Assembly: GCA_048882505.1 (NCBI GenBank) | Contig: JBHLRO010000001.1 | Coordinates: 120,001-152,000 of the forward strand | DNA length: 32,000 nucleotides | DNA from: Candidatus Thorarchaeota archaeon | GTDB lineage: Archaea; Asgardarchaeota; Heimdallarchaeia; Hodarchaeales; Hodarchaeaceae | Reading direction: 5' to 3' | In this document: piece after piece, positions 738 through 20,517 of the stretch | How the letters are laid out: every line of letters starts with the position of its first letter | Position numbering within the stretch: position 1 is the stretch's first letter | The notes under the pieces: generated by a model | What the model saw: only the letters and a program-made list of their open reading frames with translations | The model's database searches: none | What the model was told of the DNA's origin: nothing | Translations under genes and position numbers: made by a program

Positions 738-1119
738 TCTTGTTCAATCCTTGGCGGCGCCATTTTTTTTAAATGGCAAGAACTGGATGTATCACCCATT
801 TCTATGCAAGAATAAAACCTCCCCTGTGCGATCAATAGTTTTTTCTCGAGAATTCAAAACTCGAGTTAACGCACTAAGATACTTGTCGATCATGAAACGA
901 ATTGGCTTATTGTAATATTGCCTAGCCAGAACCTTTTCATAAGAGATTAAACCACATCTCCAATATTTTGGCGGCTTATCGGCCGAAATTATTCCTAACT
1001 TCGGATTTTCTAATTCAGATTGCTTGATTTATCATTGAACAAACAGGGTGCCCAATGATCTTATGAACCAAGAGATGTAGTTAGGAGGATATCTTGTGGG
1101 TTAAGGTAGGCGAGCGATC

Positions 1120-1989
1120 CTGCAACTCTATTTCAAACATCTACTTCCAAGCTACCAAGAATGGCGGGAGGAACCATTTACTCCGTGGCGTTTTGAGGAA
1201 TACGTCTTTTTTTCTGTTTTAGGCTTCTTTGAATCAAATCTGCTAGATGATCCCGAGTTTTCTCTGAAAGAAATCGTTCAATGCGAATCTATCTTTATGG
1301 ATTCTGGAGCTTTCGCTGCGGCATCCCTAGGTTTTACGTTAGACCCATTCGAAATTGCAGAAATGCAATCACGCCTTAAAGCAGATCTGATAGTACCTTT
1401 GGACGAAATTATTTTCTCTGAAGATGACGAAGATATAATTAACCAAAAGCTCACAAGCACAATTCTTAACACGGAAATCCTGATTGATTTAAAATCAATA
1501 GAGAGTGAAATCGTTGGACCTCTCCAAGGGCTGTCCCTAGACATTATAGAACGTCTGTTTGATACTTACAGATCACTAGGAATCAAGAAATTCGCTCTCG
1601 GGGGACTAGTTTTTCAATCGAGTCTCAAACAGACTATTGAGCAAATTAAAAAGGTTCGACGACTCACTAAGGGATATTCTTTACATATCTTTGGACGATT
1701 TCTTCACCCTACATTGTTACAGCCGATTATGGAAGCAAAGGTTGATTCGGTGGACGGTTTTGGATATATCATCAAGTCTGTGAAAGGGATGTATATTCAG
1801 CAGGAGAACAGAAAATATGTCGCTATTGGAGCCTTAGAATCTGTGGAGGAGTGTTCGTGTTCTGTTTGCCTGAACAATGATATCTTGGACTTTCAACGAG
1901 GGGATGAGACGGCCCAGTATCTCTTGATCCAACATAACATTAGGGCACTAATCGACATCAAGAACCGATATTTATCGGAGCTGTATTGA
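1120..1989 (+). CDS. Compact queuine/archaeosine tRNA-guanine transglycosylase (TGT)-fold protein, DpdA-like, no PUA domain. Start uncertain: frame open from 1105, first ATG at 1297.
   Basis: TGT motifs in order: IFMDSGAF, VPLD, GPLQG, FALGGL, LHIFG, VDSVD (nucleophile Asp position), Zn site CSCSVC...HN. The same frame is open upstream of the ATG (LQLYFKHLLPSYQEW...SLKEIVQCESIF), and the DSG motif sits right at that ATG, so the real start must be upstream. Confidence 0.85.
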   Translation: MQLYFKHLLPSYQEWREEPFTPWRFEEYVFFSVLGFFESNLLDDPEFSLKEIVQCESIFMDSGAFAAASLGFTLDPFEIAEMQSRLKADLIVPLDEIIFSEDDEDIINQKLTSTILNTEILIDLKSIESEIVGPLQGLSLDIIERLFDTYRSLGIKKFALGGLVFQSSLKQTIEQIKKVRRLTKGYSLHIFGRFLHPTLLQPIMEAKVDSVDGFGYIIKSVKGMYIQQENRKYVAIGALESVEECSCSVCLNNDILDFQRGDETAQYLLIQHNIRALIDIKNRYLSELY

Positions 1990-1992
1990 CCC

Positions 1993-3309
1993 ATGGAGCA
2001 GCTGATGAATTTTCTTGTTTTAAACGGACATTTAACAGCCGGAGAAGGGTTTTTATTCGGTAAACTTGTGCAGCAATGGCCCTATTCTCTAAAGATAAAT
2101 CAAGCGAAGAAAGAACTGAGGAAAGCAGGTTTTGCTAGGGCCCAGGAAGTCTTAATAAGACTTTCTAGCAAGAGAATAATAATTGTCGACAACAGCCAAA
2201 TTGCATTTCATCAAAGGGGAATTTTAAAATTCTTGGATAACCTCCAAAATCAGCTTTCTAAAATATCAAGCGAATTTGGCCGACTTAAACTGAATTTTAA
2301 TAAGGAAAGGCCTGACCCGAAAGATACTTCTGGTCATCGAATTTTGCTCCCCGAAGATGTATTGCTATTATTCTCCAGTAATAAGCCAGTACAATCCGAA
2401 AAGATATTTCTTGATGGAACTGATTTAATTCACACTATTGAGACAATCGAGCGTCTAGCTAGTCTGGGAATCCTGAAAATTCAAGAAAGATCTAAATCTC
2501 GTCAATTATCATTAACCAGTGAGGGAGCTGCCTTAAGATATTTATTTTATCACAAGCACGAGTTAAACCAAGCAAATTACGATTACCTAGAAAAAACATT
2601 CCTGAAATCAAATCAAGCTACATGGGAAACGTTTTTGGAGAACTTGAATCATACACGAGAGGAACCAACCCTTTCATCGTGGCAGATTAATTTTATTGCC
2701 ATCATCACCAATCTCAGTATTCTAATGAAAGAAGAAGGGAAACCTTCGAGTTTTACTCTAAAGCCTCCAGAAGGAATAGTACCCTTAAATAATCAAGAAG
2801 TTAGGACATTGAAAGAAGAAGTCAGTGGATTCATACCAATGATGACAGGTAGACTCCTTGAAGTTCTTATAGAGCTACAAAACTCAGACAATCCGATATC
2901 TATTGGCCAGAATTTGGAACTCGGACCATCAGGGCTTGGAGGAAGTTTAAAAATGTTAACGAAGTTTGGATTGGTGCAAAAATTGGAAAAAAAGTCAGCT
3001 TACAAGCTAACTTCGAAAGGAGAACAGCTAGTGAAATTTTCTGACGACATGGAGGAAATGAAAGCTCAGTTTGCAGAGACAATCGAGGGTTTCAAAGTCT
3101 TTGAATCAGTGAGGAGATATGCGGAATCACTGCCGGACAACTCATTTGGTTTCATAGACTTGGCGGGTTATTTTCGGGCCTCCGGGGTTGAAAATTTTAA
3201 TCCTGCAAAAGCCCTGTCAGTAATGCGATTGATGACGCAGCTCCACATGGGAATAATGGAGCAGGAGGGCAATTCAGGAGCCTATCGTCTCACATCGCAA
3301 GAGGGGTAA
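1993..3309 (+). CDS. Uncharacterised protein with about four tandem winged-helix-like domains (putative DNA binding)
   Basis: Repeated wHTH-type endings: LIRLSSKRIIIVD, IERLASLGILKIQ...LSLTSEG, LKMLTKFGLVQK...YKLTSKGEQL, MRLMTQLHMG...YRLTSQEG. Starts 3 nt after the TGT stop. Confidence 0.7.
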   Translation: MEQLMNFLVLNGHLTAGEGFLFGKLVQQWPYSLKINQAKKELRKAGFARAQEVLIRLSSKRIIIVDNSQIAFHQRGILKFLDNLQNQLSKISSEFGRLKLNFNKERPDPKDTSGHRILLPEDVLLLFSSNKPVQSEKIFLDGTDLIHTIETIERLASLGILKIQERSKSRQLSLTSEGAALRYLFYHKHELNQANYDYLEKTFLKSNQATWETFLENLNHTREEPTLSSWQINFIAIITNLSILMKEEGKPSSFTLKPPEGIVPLNNQEVRTLKEEVSGFIPMMTGRLLEVLIELQNSDNPISIGQNLELGPSGLGGSLKMLTKFGLVQKLEKKSAYKLTSKGEQLVKFSDDMEEMKAQFAETIEGFKVFESVRRYAESLPDNSFGFIDLAGYFRASGVENFNPAKALSVMRLMTQLHMGIMEQEGNSGAYRLTSQEG

Positions 3310-3318
3310 GGAATTTAT

Positions 3319-4770
3319 TTGATACGCCTCCAAAAAGTCCTTAGTTCACGATCTAGATTTATTTGCCATTGTGGAAGGATTTTGTGTAGTGGAATCGGGT
3401 GTGAAGAGCATGGTATGGAAATCCAAATTGATACGACGTTTATTAAAGCTCGTTTTGAAATTCAAATGAATTCGAGTATAGCTCAATGTCTAACATTTGA
3501 TATAGAGTTGCCGCGGAATCTTTTTGTCTCACTTTTCGAAAGGGAATCCATTAAATCCAAAATTTTCACCGAAAGTAGTTTAGGCAAGGTCCGTTACCGA
3601 ATTATCATCAATAATCCTATAGGGCAAAAACTCCTTCGTGATGCCTTGGACGAATACCTAGAGACGATAGAAAGCGAAAGATTTCTTTCAGCTTACCTAC
3701 TTAAAACTTTCAGGATCAAAATGAAATCTGGGGTGAATATTTATTACTTGCTTAGCAAAATCACGGTTTCTTCTTCGAAAAACATTTGCCTCACCTTCGA
3801 AATGATTCCCCTGCGAAGGTTAAGCTCATACATTATGTGGCGGTTGTCCCATTGTGGTGGAACACGCGAAAGCATCTCTTCCTCTCTGGAAAACCAACGT
3901 AATGAAGTAATCACCAAATTAGGTGAATCTACTGAAATTGATGCCATTAATTGGTCCAAAGAAAAAAAGCTACCTTCCTTCATAATGTGTAAGGGAGTAG
4001 GAAGCTTTTTTCCTTCGGATTTATTCCATAGTTCAAAGCATTTCTTGATTAGTGAGCCTTTCGTGAGAAAGGCATGGGATGGGTTGGAAAAGATAAGCTT
4101 TCAATTTGTTGAAGGTCTGAGCAGGTTTTTCTTTCAAAGAAAGAGCTGGAATGGGGAGTTTCGAAAACTTAAATACGATGATGGAACCTTTACGGAATAT
4201 AATGGGCATCGAATACGAGTTCGTTCTTCCTTTCTACAAACCGTAGGAAGAAATCAAAACAAATGGCTTTTAAAAAAATTAAATTCGCTTTTGACGCCCT
4301 TGGCTGATAAAAATACCCCAAATGGTACTCGAAAACTACTTTTGATCAGCTGTTCTGCGACCAAAGATGTTTTGGGAGATCTCCTCCCCGCAATTCTTAG
4401 GTATTGCGGGCGTGTTCATCTCCTGGTTAAAGCTATTCTTCAAGCAAAACTGTGGCCAAAAAACACGGACATGTTAATTATTAGCGCAGAATATGGACTA
4501 CTTTCTCCTTTTGATCCGATTCCGTATTACGAAAAAAGAATGCTTCCAGAGAACGTTTCTGCTCTTATCAATCAAGTCAAAAAACAACAAAAGAAAATCT
4601 CATTTCATTCATACGAAAGTTGTTTTGTCTATCTTTCCCCTCTTTATGCGAAGGCGGCTTCGCCTATTATCGATGAGCTATCCTCATTAGGCAGTAGAAT
4701 ACATATAGGTTCTACATTAGCCCAGCTTCTTGAGTGGATAACTCGGATCAATACCATCGAAAAACAGTAA
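3319..4770 (+). CDS. N-terminal Cys/His Zn-finger + unknown middle + C-terminal YaaA/DUF328/DUF6884-like domain
   Basis: N-terminal CHCG..LCSGIGCEEH. C-terminal LLISCSATK...LRYCG...LIISAEYGLLSPFDPIPYYEKRM matches the YaaA-like signature. TTG start 9 nt after the previous stop. Confidence 0.72.
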   Translation: MIRLQKVLSSRSRFICHCGRILCSGIGCEEHGMEIQIDTTFIKARFEIQMNSSIAQCLTFDIELPRNLFVSLFERESIKSKIFTESSLGKVRYRIIINNPIGQKLLRDALDEYLETIESERFLSAYLLKTFRIKMKSGVNIYYLLSKITVSSSKNICLTFEMIPLRRLSSYIMWRLSHCGGTRESISSSLENQRNEVITKLGESTEIDAINWSKEKKLPSFIMCKGVGSFFPSDLFHSSKHFLISEPFVRKAWDGLEKISFQFVEGLSRFFFQRKSWNGEFRKLKYDDGTFTEYNGHRIRVRSSFLQTVGRNQNKWLLKKLNSLLTPLADKNTPNGTRKLLLISCSATKDVLGDLLPAILRYCGRVHLLVKAILQAKLWPKNTDMLIISAEYGLLSPFDPIPYYEKRMLPENVSALINQVKKQQKKISFHSYESCFVYLSPLYAKAASPIIDELSSLGSRIHIGSTLAQLLEWITRINTIEKQ

Positions 4771-12902: not shown

Positions 12903-13049
12903 AATAAAAACCGCATTGGCTTTGCAAATCTTGATGATTAGGTTTAACGCCAGGGTCTATGATGATCTCGCAGCATTTAAACTTTCTTTCTATGATTGTA
13001 ATTGTTTGAATGCTCCAGTTTTTTGTTGGAAATCGCTAGGAAAGAGGTT

Positions 13050-15179
13050 GTGCTCGAACCTTTGAGATTGGAAAAGAGCCTTGAACCTTGGACAAACCTT
13101 TGTAACACAATCTACTCCGGGGTTTCTCTCCCCGAATTTAAAATGAAAAAAGAAGAAGTATCCATAATAGTGATTCTTGGTATATGGCTACTTAGATTTC
13201 TAAGCAGTAAGAAAAATGAAGTTACAAATCTGAATTGGATTTTCAGCGAATTAGAAGAAAAAAAGAAATCCAGTCAAGACTCGCTTCATTTGTGGCAATT
13301 TTTGGCTCGGATGTTCGGTTTATTCACGGAGAAAATGCCTGAAACTCTTGTCGCGGTGTTAAATTCCAATTTGGATAGCTTTACAGATCTGATTCGGGAT
13401 GATGTTCTTGGAACCATATTACAACGCTCTCTCCAAAAGGATAAACGAAAACAACTAGCTGCCAACTATACCACTTTCCCAGCATCCAAGGTTTTAAGTT
13501 CCGTAATTCCCCCCAAGGTATATCGAAGGATCATTGATCCTTTCTGTGGATCAGGACGCCTTGTTTCAACATATCTAGACACCTTAAGTAACGAAACTGC
13601 CTCTCCTGAACTGATCTGGATAAATGATTCCCATCCAACAGCTGTGTTGATCGCCTATTCACGAATCATGCTTTCGCTATCGAAACTTCCCCAAGTTTCA
13701 ACAAGGTTAGTTGCTACAATTGGGGATGCTTTTGTCGAACTAATGCCTGATAAAGTTGGGACGTCCTTTGAATTAGTTTTAATGAACCCCCCTTTTACGC
13801 GGATACACAGAATAGAAAAACCTCAGAAAAAAGCGCTCCTCTCTCTAAGAAGAACCTATGGTAAATTCCTCAAAGGTCAACCGGGATTACACGTTTACGC
13901 GATCCTATTGGCTGATCAAATCCTGAGCGAAAAGGGAACTCTCGGTGCTATTCTCTCTGGCGCAACATTATTCTCTGCCTATTCTCAGGAGATTCAAACT
14001 TACTTAGCTACTGAGTATCAGATCGATGCAATTCTGGCCTCTATTACGAGCAAATCATTTTCCGAAGATAGCAATTTGAGAGAAGTAATTCTGGTTTCCC
14101 AAAAACATAAGCCGGAAAGAACTCACAAAGTCAAGTTCTATCACGTTTCAAACCCCCTTTCTGAATTTAATGAATCAAGTTCTCTCATCCAATCTGTCTC
14201 CTTAAGCAACTTGGCGGCTGATTGGAATTGGATGCGGTATTTTCAACCTAAATCAATGATTGAACTCAGACGGAGGTTACTAAAAACAAATAAGATAAAG
14301 TCTGGCGAAAAATTAAGGCTCCAGATTGTACGTGGGGTCGAGATGTATGGTCCAAACTTCTTTTTTTTCCCTAATAAGCTGTGGAGCCAAGTAGTTCAAA
14401 CAACTGAAGGAATTACTATTTCTTCCAAGACACATTCATTAAAAATACCGTGGCCATATATTAAGAAGTCATTGAGAAAGCCAGGTAATTATCACGGGTA
14501 TATTACACCTGATGTTGAGGATTTTGCCCTTTCAATTCCTGGGAACTTTAATGACATCCTTGAAATGCCCATATGGCTGAAAGAGTACATCGAACTGACA
14601 CATCAGTATGCTGAACCCGCAAAGAAAAAATTTGGCTCCAATTGGGTACACCATGTATTTCATCAACTGGAAACAAAAAGGCCATGGGGCCACTTGTTTT
14701 TTGTAGATAAATTTGGAATTACTACCATTACCAACAATGTATTCTTTTTAGAAGAGCGAATTACATGTACAAAGAATTTCTACGTCTTAGTAAACGAATC
14801 CTTGGAACTGGCAAAATTCTTGGCTGCTTGGTTTAATTCTTCATTCTATTTCTTTCTTTTCATGTGCAGCCGTAGGGAGATTGGCGGATCATTTGGTCGA
14901 CTTCAGATCATTGATTATTTACAAGAACCTCTGTTTCTCGATATGTCACAAAGTTCATTTGAGACAATCAATAATATTGTTAAGGCGTTTGATAAGTTTA
15001 GATCAAAAAAATTAGGCTCTATCCCTAGTCAGCTATTTGCACAGGAGAGGATAGCACTTGATTACGCCATTGCCAAAGCATTAAGCCTCGATAATAACGA
15101 AATTCCAGGCCTTATAGAAAACCTGCATAGTATTTTGCAATTGGAGTTTAAAAAAATGCAATCTCGCGATAGGTCATAA
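13050..15179 (+). CDS. N6-adenine DNA methyltransferase with C-terminal TRD (Eco57I/type IIG-like M-TRD part), no recognisable nuclease domain
   Basis: Motif I IDPFCGSG, motif IV LVLMNPPFTR, and a C-terminal RREIGGSFGRLQIIDY...P typical of IIG-like TRDs. The ORF is open from TTG 13002; GTG 13050 preceded by GAGG is preferred. Confidence 0.85.
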   Translation: MLEPLRLEKSLEPWTNLCNTIYSGVSLPEFKMKKEEVSIIVILGIWLLRFLSSKKNEVTNLNWIFSELEEKKKSSQDSLHLWQFLARMFGLFTEKMPETLVAVLNSNLDSFTDLIRDDVLGTILQRSLQKDKRKQLAANYTTFPASKVLSSVIPPKVYRRIIDPFCGSGRLVSTYLDTLSNETASPELIWINDSHPTAVLIAYSRIMLSLSKLPQVSTRLVATIGDAFVELMPDKVGTSFELVLMNPPFTRIHRIEKPQKKALLSLRRTYGKFLKGQPGLHVYAILLADQILSEKGTLGAILSGATLFSAYSQEIQTYLATEYQIDAILASITSKSFSEDSNLREVILVSQKHKPERTHKVKFYHVSNPLSEFNESSSLIQSVSLSNLAADWNWMRYFQPKSMIELRRRLLKTNKIKSGEKLRLQIVRGVEMYGPNFFFFPNKLWSQVVQTTEGITISSKTHSLKIPWPYIKKSLRKPGNYHGYITPDVEDFALSIPGNFNDILEMPIWLKEYIELTHQYAEPAKKKFGSNWVHHVFHQLETKRPWGHLFFVDKFGITTITNNVFFLEERITCTKNFYVLVNESLELAKFLAAWFNSSFYFFLFMCSRREIGGSFGRLQIIDYLQEPLFLDMSQSSFETINNIVKAFDKFRSKKLGSIPSQLFAQERIALDYAIAKALSLDNNEIPGLIENLHSILQLEFKKMQSRDRS

Positions 15180-18417: not shown

Positions 18418-20517
18418 ATGACAGTAACACAACGCGACATCGAAAAACATCTTTGGGACGCCTCTAATATTCTCCGAGGCAGTGTGGATGCCTCAGAATT
18501 CAAGAATTTTATAGTTGGGCTGCTTTTTCTCAAGAGACTCTCTGATGTTTATGATGAAATTGCCAGAAATGAACCAGATAGCGCTTCTACGGCCCAAATT
18601 GTTTGGGAACACCTTGATGGACAAACTTATCAAATTCCCACGGAAGCCCATTGGAATGCGATACCTCGGTTATGGTACCAGGACATTGGCGATCATCTTA
18701 ATCATATTTCAGAACTTCTCGAGCAGAAAAACCCGTTACTTAAGGGAATCCTAACTAATATTGATTTTAGCCGTTTGCCAAGGGATACCTTGATACGCTT
18801 GGTAAGCCATTTTGATGAAATACGTCTACGCAATGCAGATCTAGTAGATCCAGATCTTTTAGGCCGGGCTTACGAATACCTGATTGCGAAATTTGCAGAA
18901 AAAGCCAAGCAAGGCGGAGAATTTTATACACCCCATAACGTGGTTCGTCTTCTTGTTGAACTCCTAAATCCCGAAGAAAACATGTGGGTTTGTGATCCCA
19001 CCTCTGGCTCTGGAGGCCTCCTGCTTCAGTGTGTGGAGTTTTTACGGCGCTCAGATAAAAATTGGCAAACTCTTTCTCTCTTTGGTCAAGAAAGCAACCC
19101 ACAAACTTGGGCATTATCAAAGATCAATATGTTCCTGCATGGAATTAACGCCAGGATTGAATTAGGTGACACAATTAGAAACCCCAAGCTTGTCAAGGAT
19201 GGCCATCTTCTCCTGTTTGATCTGGTTATTGCAAATCCCCCATTTTCGTTAAAAGAATGGGGAAGGGGGATTGCGAAAAACGACCCATATAATCGATTTA
19301 AACTAGGAATCCCCCCAAAGAGTATTGGGGATATGGCCTTTCTCCAGCATATGATATCTACTTTGAGATCAAATGGACGTCTGGGAATTATATTACCCCA
19401 TGGTGTTTTGTTTCGTGGAGGGGCCGAACGGAAGATACGAAAAACCCTCGTAGAGGCAGATTTCATTGAGGCCATCGTAGGTCTTCCACCAAATCTATTT
19501 TATGGCACTAGCATTCCGGCATGTATCTTGATACTTAACAAAAACAAGCAATCGGATCGAAAATCAAAAATACAATTCATAAATGCGTTTTCGCTATACA
19601 ACGCCCGTCCCAGTCAAAACGTGCTCACCGTACAACATATTCAAAAGATCGTGGAGGCACATAGTAATCAACGCGAATCCCCCCAATTCTCACGAATAGT
19701 TTCCATAAAGGAAATTAGGGATATGATGTATAATCTTAATATATCGCTCTACATTGACATTTCCACCCCAGATCCTCAAATTGACGTACAGAAGGTATGG
19801 AATGGTTTTCATCTTCTTGAAAATGTTCGTCAGTCGCAAATTGACCAGGTTCAAAAAGTGATTGAACGAGTTTCTGAATCTGCATCCTCTTCCACTTCAA
19901 CCATCAGCGCATACCCAGATACTTGGTACAGTGCAAAGCTGGGAGACTTGGTAACAATTGAAACAGGAAAACGAGCAAAGGGAGGAGCTTTGAAGAGTGG
20001 AGAAGTGGCGAGCATCGGAGGAGAACATATCAACGATGGAAGAATTTCATGGGAAACAATCAAATACATCCCTGACAGAATTTACATGCAGCTAACGCAG
20101 GGAAAGGTTAATCTACACGATGTTCTAGTTGTCAAGGATGGGGCCACTACAGGCAAGGTTGCTTTCATTCGTGATCTTCCCTATGAAAAAATCGCAGTAA
20201 ACGAACACGTTTTTCTAATTCGAACCAATGATCCTAACCAATTGGACGCAGAATTCTTGTATTATGTTATGGAGTCGAAAATCGGGCAAAGTCAGATTAA
20301 AAAAAGATTTCATGGAATCATTGGGGGAATAAACAGAACAGACGTCAAATCGATAAAAATCCCTATTCCGCCAATCAAGGAACAGCACAAGATTGTACAA
20401 ATTCTGGCCTCCCTTGAAACTCACATTAATTTGACAAATGAGGTTAACCAACAGGTCAAAACGTTGAAGAAGGGGTTAATGCAACATCTTCTATCTGGGG
20501 GGTTGGGACCAGATTAA
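18418..20517 (+). CDS. hsdM: Type I R-M methyltransferase HsdM fused in frame to a single HsdS target-recognition domain
   Basis: LWDASNILRG, LGRAYEYLI, GGEFYTP, DPTSGSGG, ANPPFS, LPHGVLFRG. After a Ser/Thr linker come WYSAKLGDL...TRD...IPIPPIKEQHKIV...LKKGLMQHLLSG. Confidence 0.92.
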   Translation: MTVTQRDIEKHLWDASNILRGSVDASEFKNFIVGLLFLKRLSDVYDEIARNEPDSASTAQIVWEHLDGQTYQIPTEAHWNAIPRLWYQDIGDHLNHISELLEQKNPLLKGILTNIDFSRLPRDTLIRLVSHFDEIRLRNADLVDPDLLGRAYEYLIAKFAEKAKQGGEFYTPHNVVRLLVELLNPEENMWVCDPTSGSGGLLLQCVEFLRRSDKNWQTLSLFGQESNPQTWALSKINMFLHGINARIELGDTIRNPKLVKDGHLLLFDLVIANPPFSLKEWGRGIAKNDPYNRFKLGIPPKSIGDMAFLQHMISTLRSNGRLGIILPHGVLFRGGAERKIRKTLVEADFIEAIVGLPPNLFYGTSIPACILILNKNKQSDRKSKIQFINAFSLYNARPSQNVLTVQHIQKIVEAHSNQRESPQFSRIVSIKEIRDMMYNLNISLYIDISTPDPQIDVQKVWNGFHLLENVRQSQIDQVQKVIERVSESASSSTSTISAYPDTWYSAKLGDLVTIETGKRAKGGALKSGEVASIGGEHINDGRISWETIKYIPDRIYMQLTQGKVNLHDVLVVKDGATTGKVAFIRDLPYEKIAVNEHVFLIRTNDPNQLDAEFLYYVMESKIGQSQIKKRFHGIIGGINRTDVKSIKIPIPPIKEQHKIVQILASLETHINLTNEVNQQVKTLKKGLMQHLLSGGLGPD

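Follow-up and report, generated by a model that had tools for sequence, protein, structure and literature searches.

Bacterial Dpd islands, phages, and archaeal viruses are the known settings of 7-deazaguanine bases in DNA. Archaeosine at G15 of tRNA is made by arcTGT and ArcS, and the ArcS C1 domain takes a nitrile to an amidine. The eukaryotic tRNA-guanine transglycosylase (TGT) pairs a catalytic subunit with a non-catalytic one in a heterodimer. A three-term literature search, whose one match was unrelated, found no description of a cellular 7-deazaguanine-DNA system in Asgard archaea. Here we describe a three-gene module in an Asgard genome, Candidatus Thorarchaeota archaeon (GCA_048882505.1; 4.3 Mb, 94.5% complete). 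The window is the 32,000-nucleotide stretch at positions 120,001 to 152,000 of contig JBHLRO010000001.1 (G000:C1:120001-152000). The module encodes a short TGT-superfamily protein (gene 1), a tandem winged-helix protein (gene 2), and a protein that fuses a zinc-knuckle/α+β region to a DUF6884/YaaA-fold domain (gene 3). The reading we favor, with moderate confidence, is a Dpd-like system without DpdB and restriction genes that would put preQ0 into DNA and tailor its nitrile.

In the Dpd system of Salmonella Montevideo (DpdA-DpdB-DpdC; PMC10164549), a PUA-less TGT-fold enzyme is likewise linked to a protein of the DUF6884/YaaA superfamily. The three active-site aspartates are conserved in gene 1, and the predicted logic, preQ0 insertion followed by nitrile tailoring on the polymer, is the same. 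DpdC turns preQ0-DNA into ADG-DNA (nitrile to amide) independently of DpdA and DpdB (PMC10164549) and is reported to match DUF6884 (PMC11888242). The Asgard module differs from Dpd in its archaeal host and in having no adjacent DpdB (a ParB/DndB-like ATPase), no nearby dpdD-K restriction genes, and no linked preQ0 synthesis genes. Its TGT falls short of the DpdA equivalog model and belongs to a clade of its own, and its partners are a new zinc-knuckle/α+β protein fused to DUF6884 and a tandem winged-helix protein. Phages and archaeal viruses encode DpdA1-4 and ArcS2 (PMC6884629, PMC10516641). These DpdAs are short (~300 aa) PUA-less TGT paralogues like gene 1, and in some cases a nitrile-tailoring domain encoded on its own, the ArcS C1 core (PC-x3-K), accompanies them. 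In contrast, the module lies in a chromosome and has no viral genes as neighbors, and its tailoring domain is of the DUF6884 type without the full ArcS motif. Expression of the ArcS C1 core with DpdA2 of phage nt-1 gave dG+ in DNA (PMC10516641). Because of the DpdC and ArcS C1/DpdA2 precedents, we read a TGT-fold enzyme beside a CxxxK domain as a likely signature of preQ0 insertion and nitrile tailoring. Unlike arcTGT, gene 1 has none of the C1–C3/PUA tRNA-binding domains.

Architecture of the three-gene module

The three open reading frames (ORFs) lie in one orientation, separated by 3 nt (CCC) and 9 nt, as the first-pass annotation had described. Their features are as follows.

1084..1116, + strand: gene 1 leader, with a Shine-Dalgarno (SD)-like AAGGTAGG at ~1104-1111 ahead of ATC 1117, read from the sequence
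1117..1989, + strand: gene 1, short TGT-superfamily transglycosylase of ~290 aa; probable start ATC 1117, frame open from 1105
1300-1302, + strand: gene 1 D66, predicted general acid/base (alignment to 1iq8)
1402-1404, + strand: gene 1 D100, predicted base-binding residue (family alignment)
1744-1755, + strand: gene 1 D214/D217, predicted nucleophile region (alignment to 1iq8)
1852-1935, + strand: gene 1 zinc site C250/C252/C255/H277 (alignment to 1iq8)
1993..3309, + strand: gene 2 (ATG start), tandem winged-helix protein of 438 aa with 4–5 winged-helix units
3319..4308, + strand: gene 3 N-terminal region (residues 1–330; gene 3 runs from TTG 3319 to 4770), zinc knuckle plus α+β region, predicted binding partner of gene 1
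3364-3411, + strand: gene 3 zinc knuckle C16, C18, C28, H31 (homologue alignment)
4327..4770, + strand: gene 3 C-terminal DUF6884/YaaA-fold domain, residues 337–479
4351-4365, + strand: gene 3 C345-SAT-K349 (CxxxK), DUF6884 motif
4483-4497, + strand: gene 3 S389-AEY-G393 (SAxxG), DUF6884 motif

Gene 1 matches the Pfam TGT family (PF01702) over residues 76–284, counted from position 1105, with 53.5 bits against a cut-off of 26.3. The TGT motifs are all kept: D66-S-G, P98-L-D100, L140-Q-G, G166-G-L, D214-S-V-D217, C250-x-C252-xx-C255, and H277. Within a 14-member alignment, D66-S-G, D100, Q141-G, G167, D214/S215/D217, C250/C252/C255, and H277 are invariant or nearly so. A profile alignment maps gene 1 residues to D95, the D249 nucleophile region, and the zinc site of Pyrococcus horikoshii arcTGT (1iq8). 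The protein ends right behind the zinc subdomain and has no PUA domain and no C-terminal extension. The Pfam match and the alignments thus bear out the first-pass description of a ~290-residue, PUA-less protein with intact TGT catalytic and zinc motifs.

The gene 1 frame is open from 1105 to the TGA at 1987-1989, and its first ATG, GTG, or TTG comes only at 1297, the M of MDSG. Homologue N-termini of the form M-x-x-LYFKHL align exactly to ATC 1117-CTG 1120 of the window. The closest relative, G070, also lacks a canonical gene 1 start; its gene 1 is 82% identical and keeps ATC-CTG and the SD-like AAGGTGGG. An AGGAGGA motif and a mini-ORF starting at TTG 1095 are in a different frame from gene 1, and both are lost in G070. 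Because homologues begin at ATC 1117 and G070 keeps ATC-CTG with the SD-like motif while losing the mini-ORF, the sequence comparison favors ATC 1117 (or CTG 1120) as a non-canonical start over a frameshift. Translation table 11 allows both ATC and CTG as rare starts. The real gene 1 product is probably ~290 aa long with a non-canonical start. The alternative that the locus is a decaying or silent remnant, in which the full-length gene 1 protein is not expressed for want of a canonical start, draws on the lack of ATG, GTG, and TTG between 1105 and 1297, on a related genome that retains just a 74-aa fragment, and on an in-frame stop in one metagenomic copy. We regard it as very improbable: the whole 294-codon frame is open, its catalytic residues are intact, its putative start is kept in G070 and uses codons allowed by table 11, and the two genes that follow it are closely packed and undamaged.

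The C-terminal domain of gene 3 has the YaaA-like α/β ("cantaloupe") fold, in line with the YaaA/DUF328-like domain recognized at first. Pfam DUF6884 is described by CxxxK and LSAxxG motifs (PMC11701544), and the corresponding gene 3 motifs are conserved as CS[AG]TK and SA[KE][YF]G in all seven domain-bearing sequences. The window copy scores 20.3 bits against DUF6884 (PF21818; cut-off 30, E 6.6e-4). Each of the seven full-length gene 3 members matches DUF6884 at E≤0.01 (best 1.1e-7), and YaaA as well. The full ArcS C1 (DUF5591) motif PC-X3-KPY-X2-S-X2-H is missing from gene 3; only the C-S-A-x-K core is common. The structure 2q07 is an ArcS C1-C2-PUA homologue; the genome's ArcS-like protein matches it at E 1e-20 and shares PC-x3-KPY with it. 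AF0587 was assigned by sequence as an ArcS C1-C2-PUA homologue. The PADLOC candidate-defense model PDC-M57A matches four of 11 gene 3 members (best E 1e-4), slightly above the DpdC models.

The TTG 3319 start of gene 3 is backed by the N-terminal CxC...CxxH knuckle conserved in homologues, which automatic gene calls trim off with the first 32 residues. Residues 1–330 had no Pfam match, and ESM Atlas features gave no usable match for the N-region. The AlphaFold model of gene 3 has a mean predicted local distance difference test score (pLDDT) of 75. The top Foldseek matches of the N-region were Argonaute/PIWI chains only, but generic α+β domains had equal or higher Z in an unbiased structural search, and we propose no Argonaute/APAZ assignment.

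The gene 2 model (pLDDT 87) shows 4–5 tandem winged helices, as the multi-winged-helix call had it, and no visible catalytic domain. Its best Foldseek matches are tandem winged-helix scaffolds: Pol III C82/RPC62, the SelB C terminus, STK19, and TFIIH p52. Gene 2 has 15 homologues of 34–75% identity, and the most conserved stretch is the C-terminal GF-x-DL-x-G-x-FR...NFNPAK.

Linkage and a predicted complex of genes 1 and 3

The cluster recurs in Asgard archaea. The order TGT, gene 2, full-length gene 3 occurs in the window, in G070 and G307, and on contigs labeled Odin (L005), Thor (L039), and metagenome (L038). In L004, G084, and G085, the TGT is followed by a 334-aa protein consisting of the gene 3 N-region only. 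Each of the seven further full loci, from Heimdall-, Odin-, and Thor-labeled records, has the TGT next to the gene 3 N-region. Gene 2 occurs only where gene 3 bears DUF6884; it is missing in three of the eight full loci and was not found anywhere in G084 (92% complete) or G085 (84% complete). Because three loci hold only those two, the TGT and the gene 3 N-region are the invariant pair, and gene 2 and the fused DUF6884 domain are gained or lost jointly. The multi-winged-helix protein had been proposed to stand in place of DpdB. That assignment needs correcting: as the constant partner of the TGT, the gene 3 N-region is the better candidate for this place. Stand-alone DUF6884 genes are found elsewhere in G084 and G085. 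The source genome also has one (G000:C4:121438-121839, L025; 42.8 bits, 164-aa frame), and so do G070 and G307.

The flanks vary by lineage (PMT, OMP decarboxylase, TauE, peptidases, NHL, ParA-like), and the module is self-contained. We did not detect helicase, nuclease, or ATPase genes adjoining it in either the window or the other seven full loci, as the first-pass annotation had noted for helicases and nucleases in the window; DpdB was not searched genome-wide. Synteny within the genus was uninformative, as only G070 is close (PurH 88% identical, compared to 60–64% in others). In the JGI metagenome contig (L038 182-1240), a single 666-aa call runs from the TGT into gene 2. This TGT also carries an in-frame stop close to its N terminus, where homologues have the Trp of E-W-Q; sequencing error, decay of the copy, or recoding of the codon may each account for it. 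The read-through (P0055) is accordingly weak evidence for a TGT-gene 2 fusion, which was set aside.

A model of gene 1 with gene 3 residues 1–330 gave an interaction prediction score from aligned errors (ipSAE) of 0.67 (runs 0.67, 0.64, and 0.68), compared to 0.11 for the best control. Of 80 solved complexes, 58 attained the mark applied, as did two of 110 mismatched pairs; the calibration is rough since our own alignments were used. The runs have at least 53% of contacts in common, and the partner pLDDT is at least 73. The predicted interface falls on family-invariant, family-specific residues (gene 1 D80, P81, E83, A85, and E86; gene 3 S189, L190, R194, and F242). The model supports binding of gene 1 to the gene 3 N-region.

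A second, differently built Asgard neighborhood of TGT-like and DUF6884 genes is found in G014 (C28, L019 6911-10754). Two divergent TGT-like genes lie back to back, encoding 321 aa (+) and 432 aa (−), and one of them belongs to the sister clade of the gene 1 family. The neighboring 533-aa protein has an N-terminal DUF6884 domain that scores 37.9 bits, above the Pfam cut-off. This locus resembles the module in that short sister-clade TGT-like genes adjoin a DUF6884 protein with no adjacent nuclease. It differs in its two TGT paralogues, in the N-terminal placement of DUF6884 on an unrelated protein, and in having no homologue of gene 2 or of the gene 3 N-region.

Distribution and placement of the gene 1 family

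A HMMER profile scan of 1.84 billion representatives returned 343 proteins at E≤1e-3 and five at E≤1e-30. The gene 1 homologues (n = 39) are nearly all ~290 aa long, PF01702 is detected in all but two fragments, and the named sources are all Asgard (Heimdall-, Hod-, Odin-, Thor-, and Borrarchaeum). The family is present in eight of 400 Asgard genomes, including two of 21 in the genus. This sporadic spread fits an accessory rather than a core translation function. The same-genus genome G068 (C165, L021 7225-7446) holds only a 74-aa N-terminal TGT-like fragment, 65% identical, that abuts an unrelated ORF; it appears to be the leftover of a lost module.

The genome has a canonical arcTGT of the 640-aa class elsewhere, along with an ArcS-like gene (289 bits). 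These two already provide for the tRNA G15 pathway, and gene 1 is a second TGT paralogue. Gene 1 scores far under the equivalog cut-offs for ArcS and bacterial Tgt. A quick maximum-likelihood tree of 111 sequences was built with phage DpdA references and no bacterial DpdA reference; support values are from the Shimodaira-Hasegawa-like approximate likelihood ratio test (SH-aLRT). The gene 1 family is monophyletic (SH-aLRT 99), and ten other short TGT-like proteins form its sister group (99). Four of these sisters were scanned; three match DpdA best (21–41 bits), and one matches nothing. The canonical arcTGT clade (SH-aLRT 100), which includes the genome's own arcTGT, excludes the gene 1 family. 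In the free tree, the family and its ten sisters also stay apart from the phage DpdA clade of 9g, RHEph04, MS1, and Rosebush (SH-aLRT 98). When the family and its sisters were constrained to group with the phage DpdAs, the log-likelihood came out 33 units above the free search (approximately unbiased test, p-AU 0.84). A constraint joining the family to the entire arcTGT clade lowered it by 28.6 units (p-AU 0.20), and this grouping was not rejected. The tree places the gene 1 family in a clade outside canonical arcTGT, and the tests are compatible with either a DpdA-like or an arcTGT-like deep position. The first-pass annotation would have been refuted by gene 1 branching within canonical arcTGT as the only TGT of the genome, and neither is the case. 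Searches for further relatives by tblastn with gene 1 and its nearest outgroup, P0067, against phage and plasmid sequences gave nothing useful, and gene 1 had no match to DUF6610 (DpdA4) at E≤1.

The leading alternative is that the module is an accessory RNA-modifying system. The TGT and gene 3 would insert preQ0 into tRNA, rRNA, or some other RNA at a non-canonical site, and the DUF6884 domain would act like ArcS C1 to give an archaeosine-like base. Several observations argue against it. Gene 1 has no PUA or other known tRNA-binding domain, just C-x3-K of the full ArcS motif is kept, the family is sporadic, and the likelihood improves when it is constrained with phage DpdAs. YaaA/DUF6884 proteins are moreover described as DNA binders (PMC11701544). 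We consider an RNA target unlikely, while giving it real weight.

Upstream of the module is an ABC permease gene on the opposite strand; downstream are a YdjM-like gene and PurH. YdjM-family genes also lie near the module in L004/L018 and have no detectable mutual homology, so a conserved fourth gene was discounted as coincidence. At 8–14 kb downstream, the window holds an N6-adenine methylase/Eco57I-like gene (13002-15179) and an HsdM-half-HsdS fusion according to the first-pass annotation (18418-20517). The housekeeping genes PurH, AOR, PBP, and TatC stand between these and the module, and neither is linked to it in other genomes. A candidate DNA methyltransferase beside the module in G070 was rejected; what lies upstream there is a 706-aa gene for an InhA-like peptidase, which is not related to the N6-methyltransferase of the window.

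preQ0 supply, proposed function, and alternatives

No preQ0 synthesis genes are linked to the module. Of the folE/queCDE pathway, named at first as a check, the genome has two PTPS/QueD-like genes, and no QueC scores above the TIGR00364 cut-off. An apparent QueC on contig C36 (G000:C36:7656-8132; L022 1498-2184) is a ThiI-family PP-loop protein (ThiI 155 bits versus QueC 28 bits). A YhhQ/Vut_1 precursor transporter gene is present (C19:28682-29212; 128 bits). De novo preQ0 synthesis in this cell is doubtful. Because no QueC was found while arcTGT, the ArcS-like gene, and the transporter are present, the cell probably salvages preQ0 for both tRNA and the module.

The analysis establishes the domain identities, the conserved catalytic residues, the gene linkage, the sporadic distribution, and the separate tRNA pathway of the genome; we infer the DNA target, the substrate base, the DUF6884 chemistry, and the role of gene 2. 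Gene 1 would be an active TGT-fold transglycosylase that forms a heterodimer with the gene 3 N-region and works on a nucleic acid other than tRNA, most probably DNA. The zinc knuckle and α+β domains of that region would supply substrate binding and fill the place of DpdB, or of the C-terminal/PUA domains of arcTGT. The pair would use the conserved Asp nucleophile to remove the target guanine and would insert preQ0, probably imported through the YhhQ-type transporter. Where present, the DUF6884 domain (CxxxK, SAxxG) would convert the nitrile of the inserted preQ0, as DpdC and ArcS C1 do; by the same analogy, the CxxxK cysteine may attack the nitrile. The tandem winged-helix protein may bind nucleic acid and position or target the DUF6884 step. 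Because no restriction partner travels with the module, its product would be a mark only, epigenetic or protective, and not part of a complete restriction-modification system. The defense role proposed at first is without direct support.

A set of results weighs against a Dpd-like, DNA-directed module. Besides the missing canonical gene 1 start here and in G070, the absence of an adjacent DpdB, the lack of QueC, and the arcTGT constraint that was not rejected, gene 1 scores 26.3 bits against the DpdA equivalog NF041059 (cut-off 200) and 24.9 bits against PADLOC DpdA (PDLC02807; E 2e-6). Its score against the arcTGT equivalog TIGR00432, 55.3 bits, is above its DpdA score, though well below the cut-off of 350. 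The PADLOC DpdC models (PDLC02815/02818) match weakly, the window copy at E 0.029 and three of 11 gene 3 members at E 6e-4 to 2e-3. The DUF6884 domain fold is equally near the tRNA-acting ArcS C1 domain and YaaA. Tandem winged-helix domains can bind RNA, as in SelB. Gene 1 had no tblastn match among 50,697 phage records, and its sequence matches in the PDB do not include the solved DpdA structures. The first-pass proposal of a Dpd-like module stands for the pairing of a PUA-less TGT with DUF6884, the Pfam family that DpdC is reported to match, with the correction that gene 1 falls outside DpdA by the curated model.

The absence of QueC and of linked restriction genes would also suit a DNA-damage or repair module without 7-deazaguanine. 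The TGT-fold enzyme would then act on a damaged guanine, by excision or exchange, with lesion recognition falling to the DUF6884/YaaA-like domain. YaaA is a peroxide-stress DNA-binding protein, and the interactors recovered for abasic and RNA-base lesions include YfjM, a DUF6884 member (PMC11701544). Against this, the TGT residues for guanine/7-deazaguanine binding and the covalent intermediate are all kept, the pairing of TGT with DUF6884 is the DpdA-DpdC signature, the YhhQ transporter offers a possible preQ0 supply, and one would expect a wider distribution of a repair function. We know of no TGT-fold enzyme that acts as a repair glycosylase, and we judge this explanation improbable.

The constant TGT/zinc-knuckle pair allows a further, rather speculative proposal to which we give little credence. 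The two proteins may form a new heterodimeric writer whose partner sets the substrate choice and targets it to particular structures or lesions. It would then be a base-exchange repair or editing enzyme, or a site-specific writer of chromosomal 7-deazaguanine epigenetic marks, rather than a source of a Dpd-style self-mark. The likeness of the partner to an Argonaute N-lobe is weak.

On the Dpd-like reading, the module would be a minimal writer with no DpdB or restriction genes, a new obligate partner, and a built-in tailoring domain. Its two- or three-gene size makes heterologous expression a direct test. Among prokaryotes, the host group, the Asgard archaea, is the one most closely related to eukaryotes. 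Should the module act on DNA, an unrecognized base modification may be present in some Asgard chromosomes, with a bearing on sequencing, on virus-host biology, and on the evolution of the TGT family.

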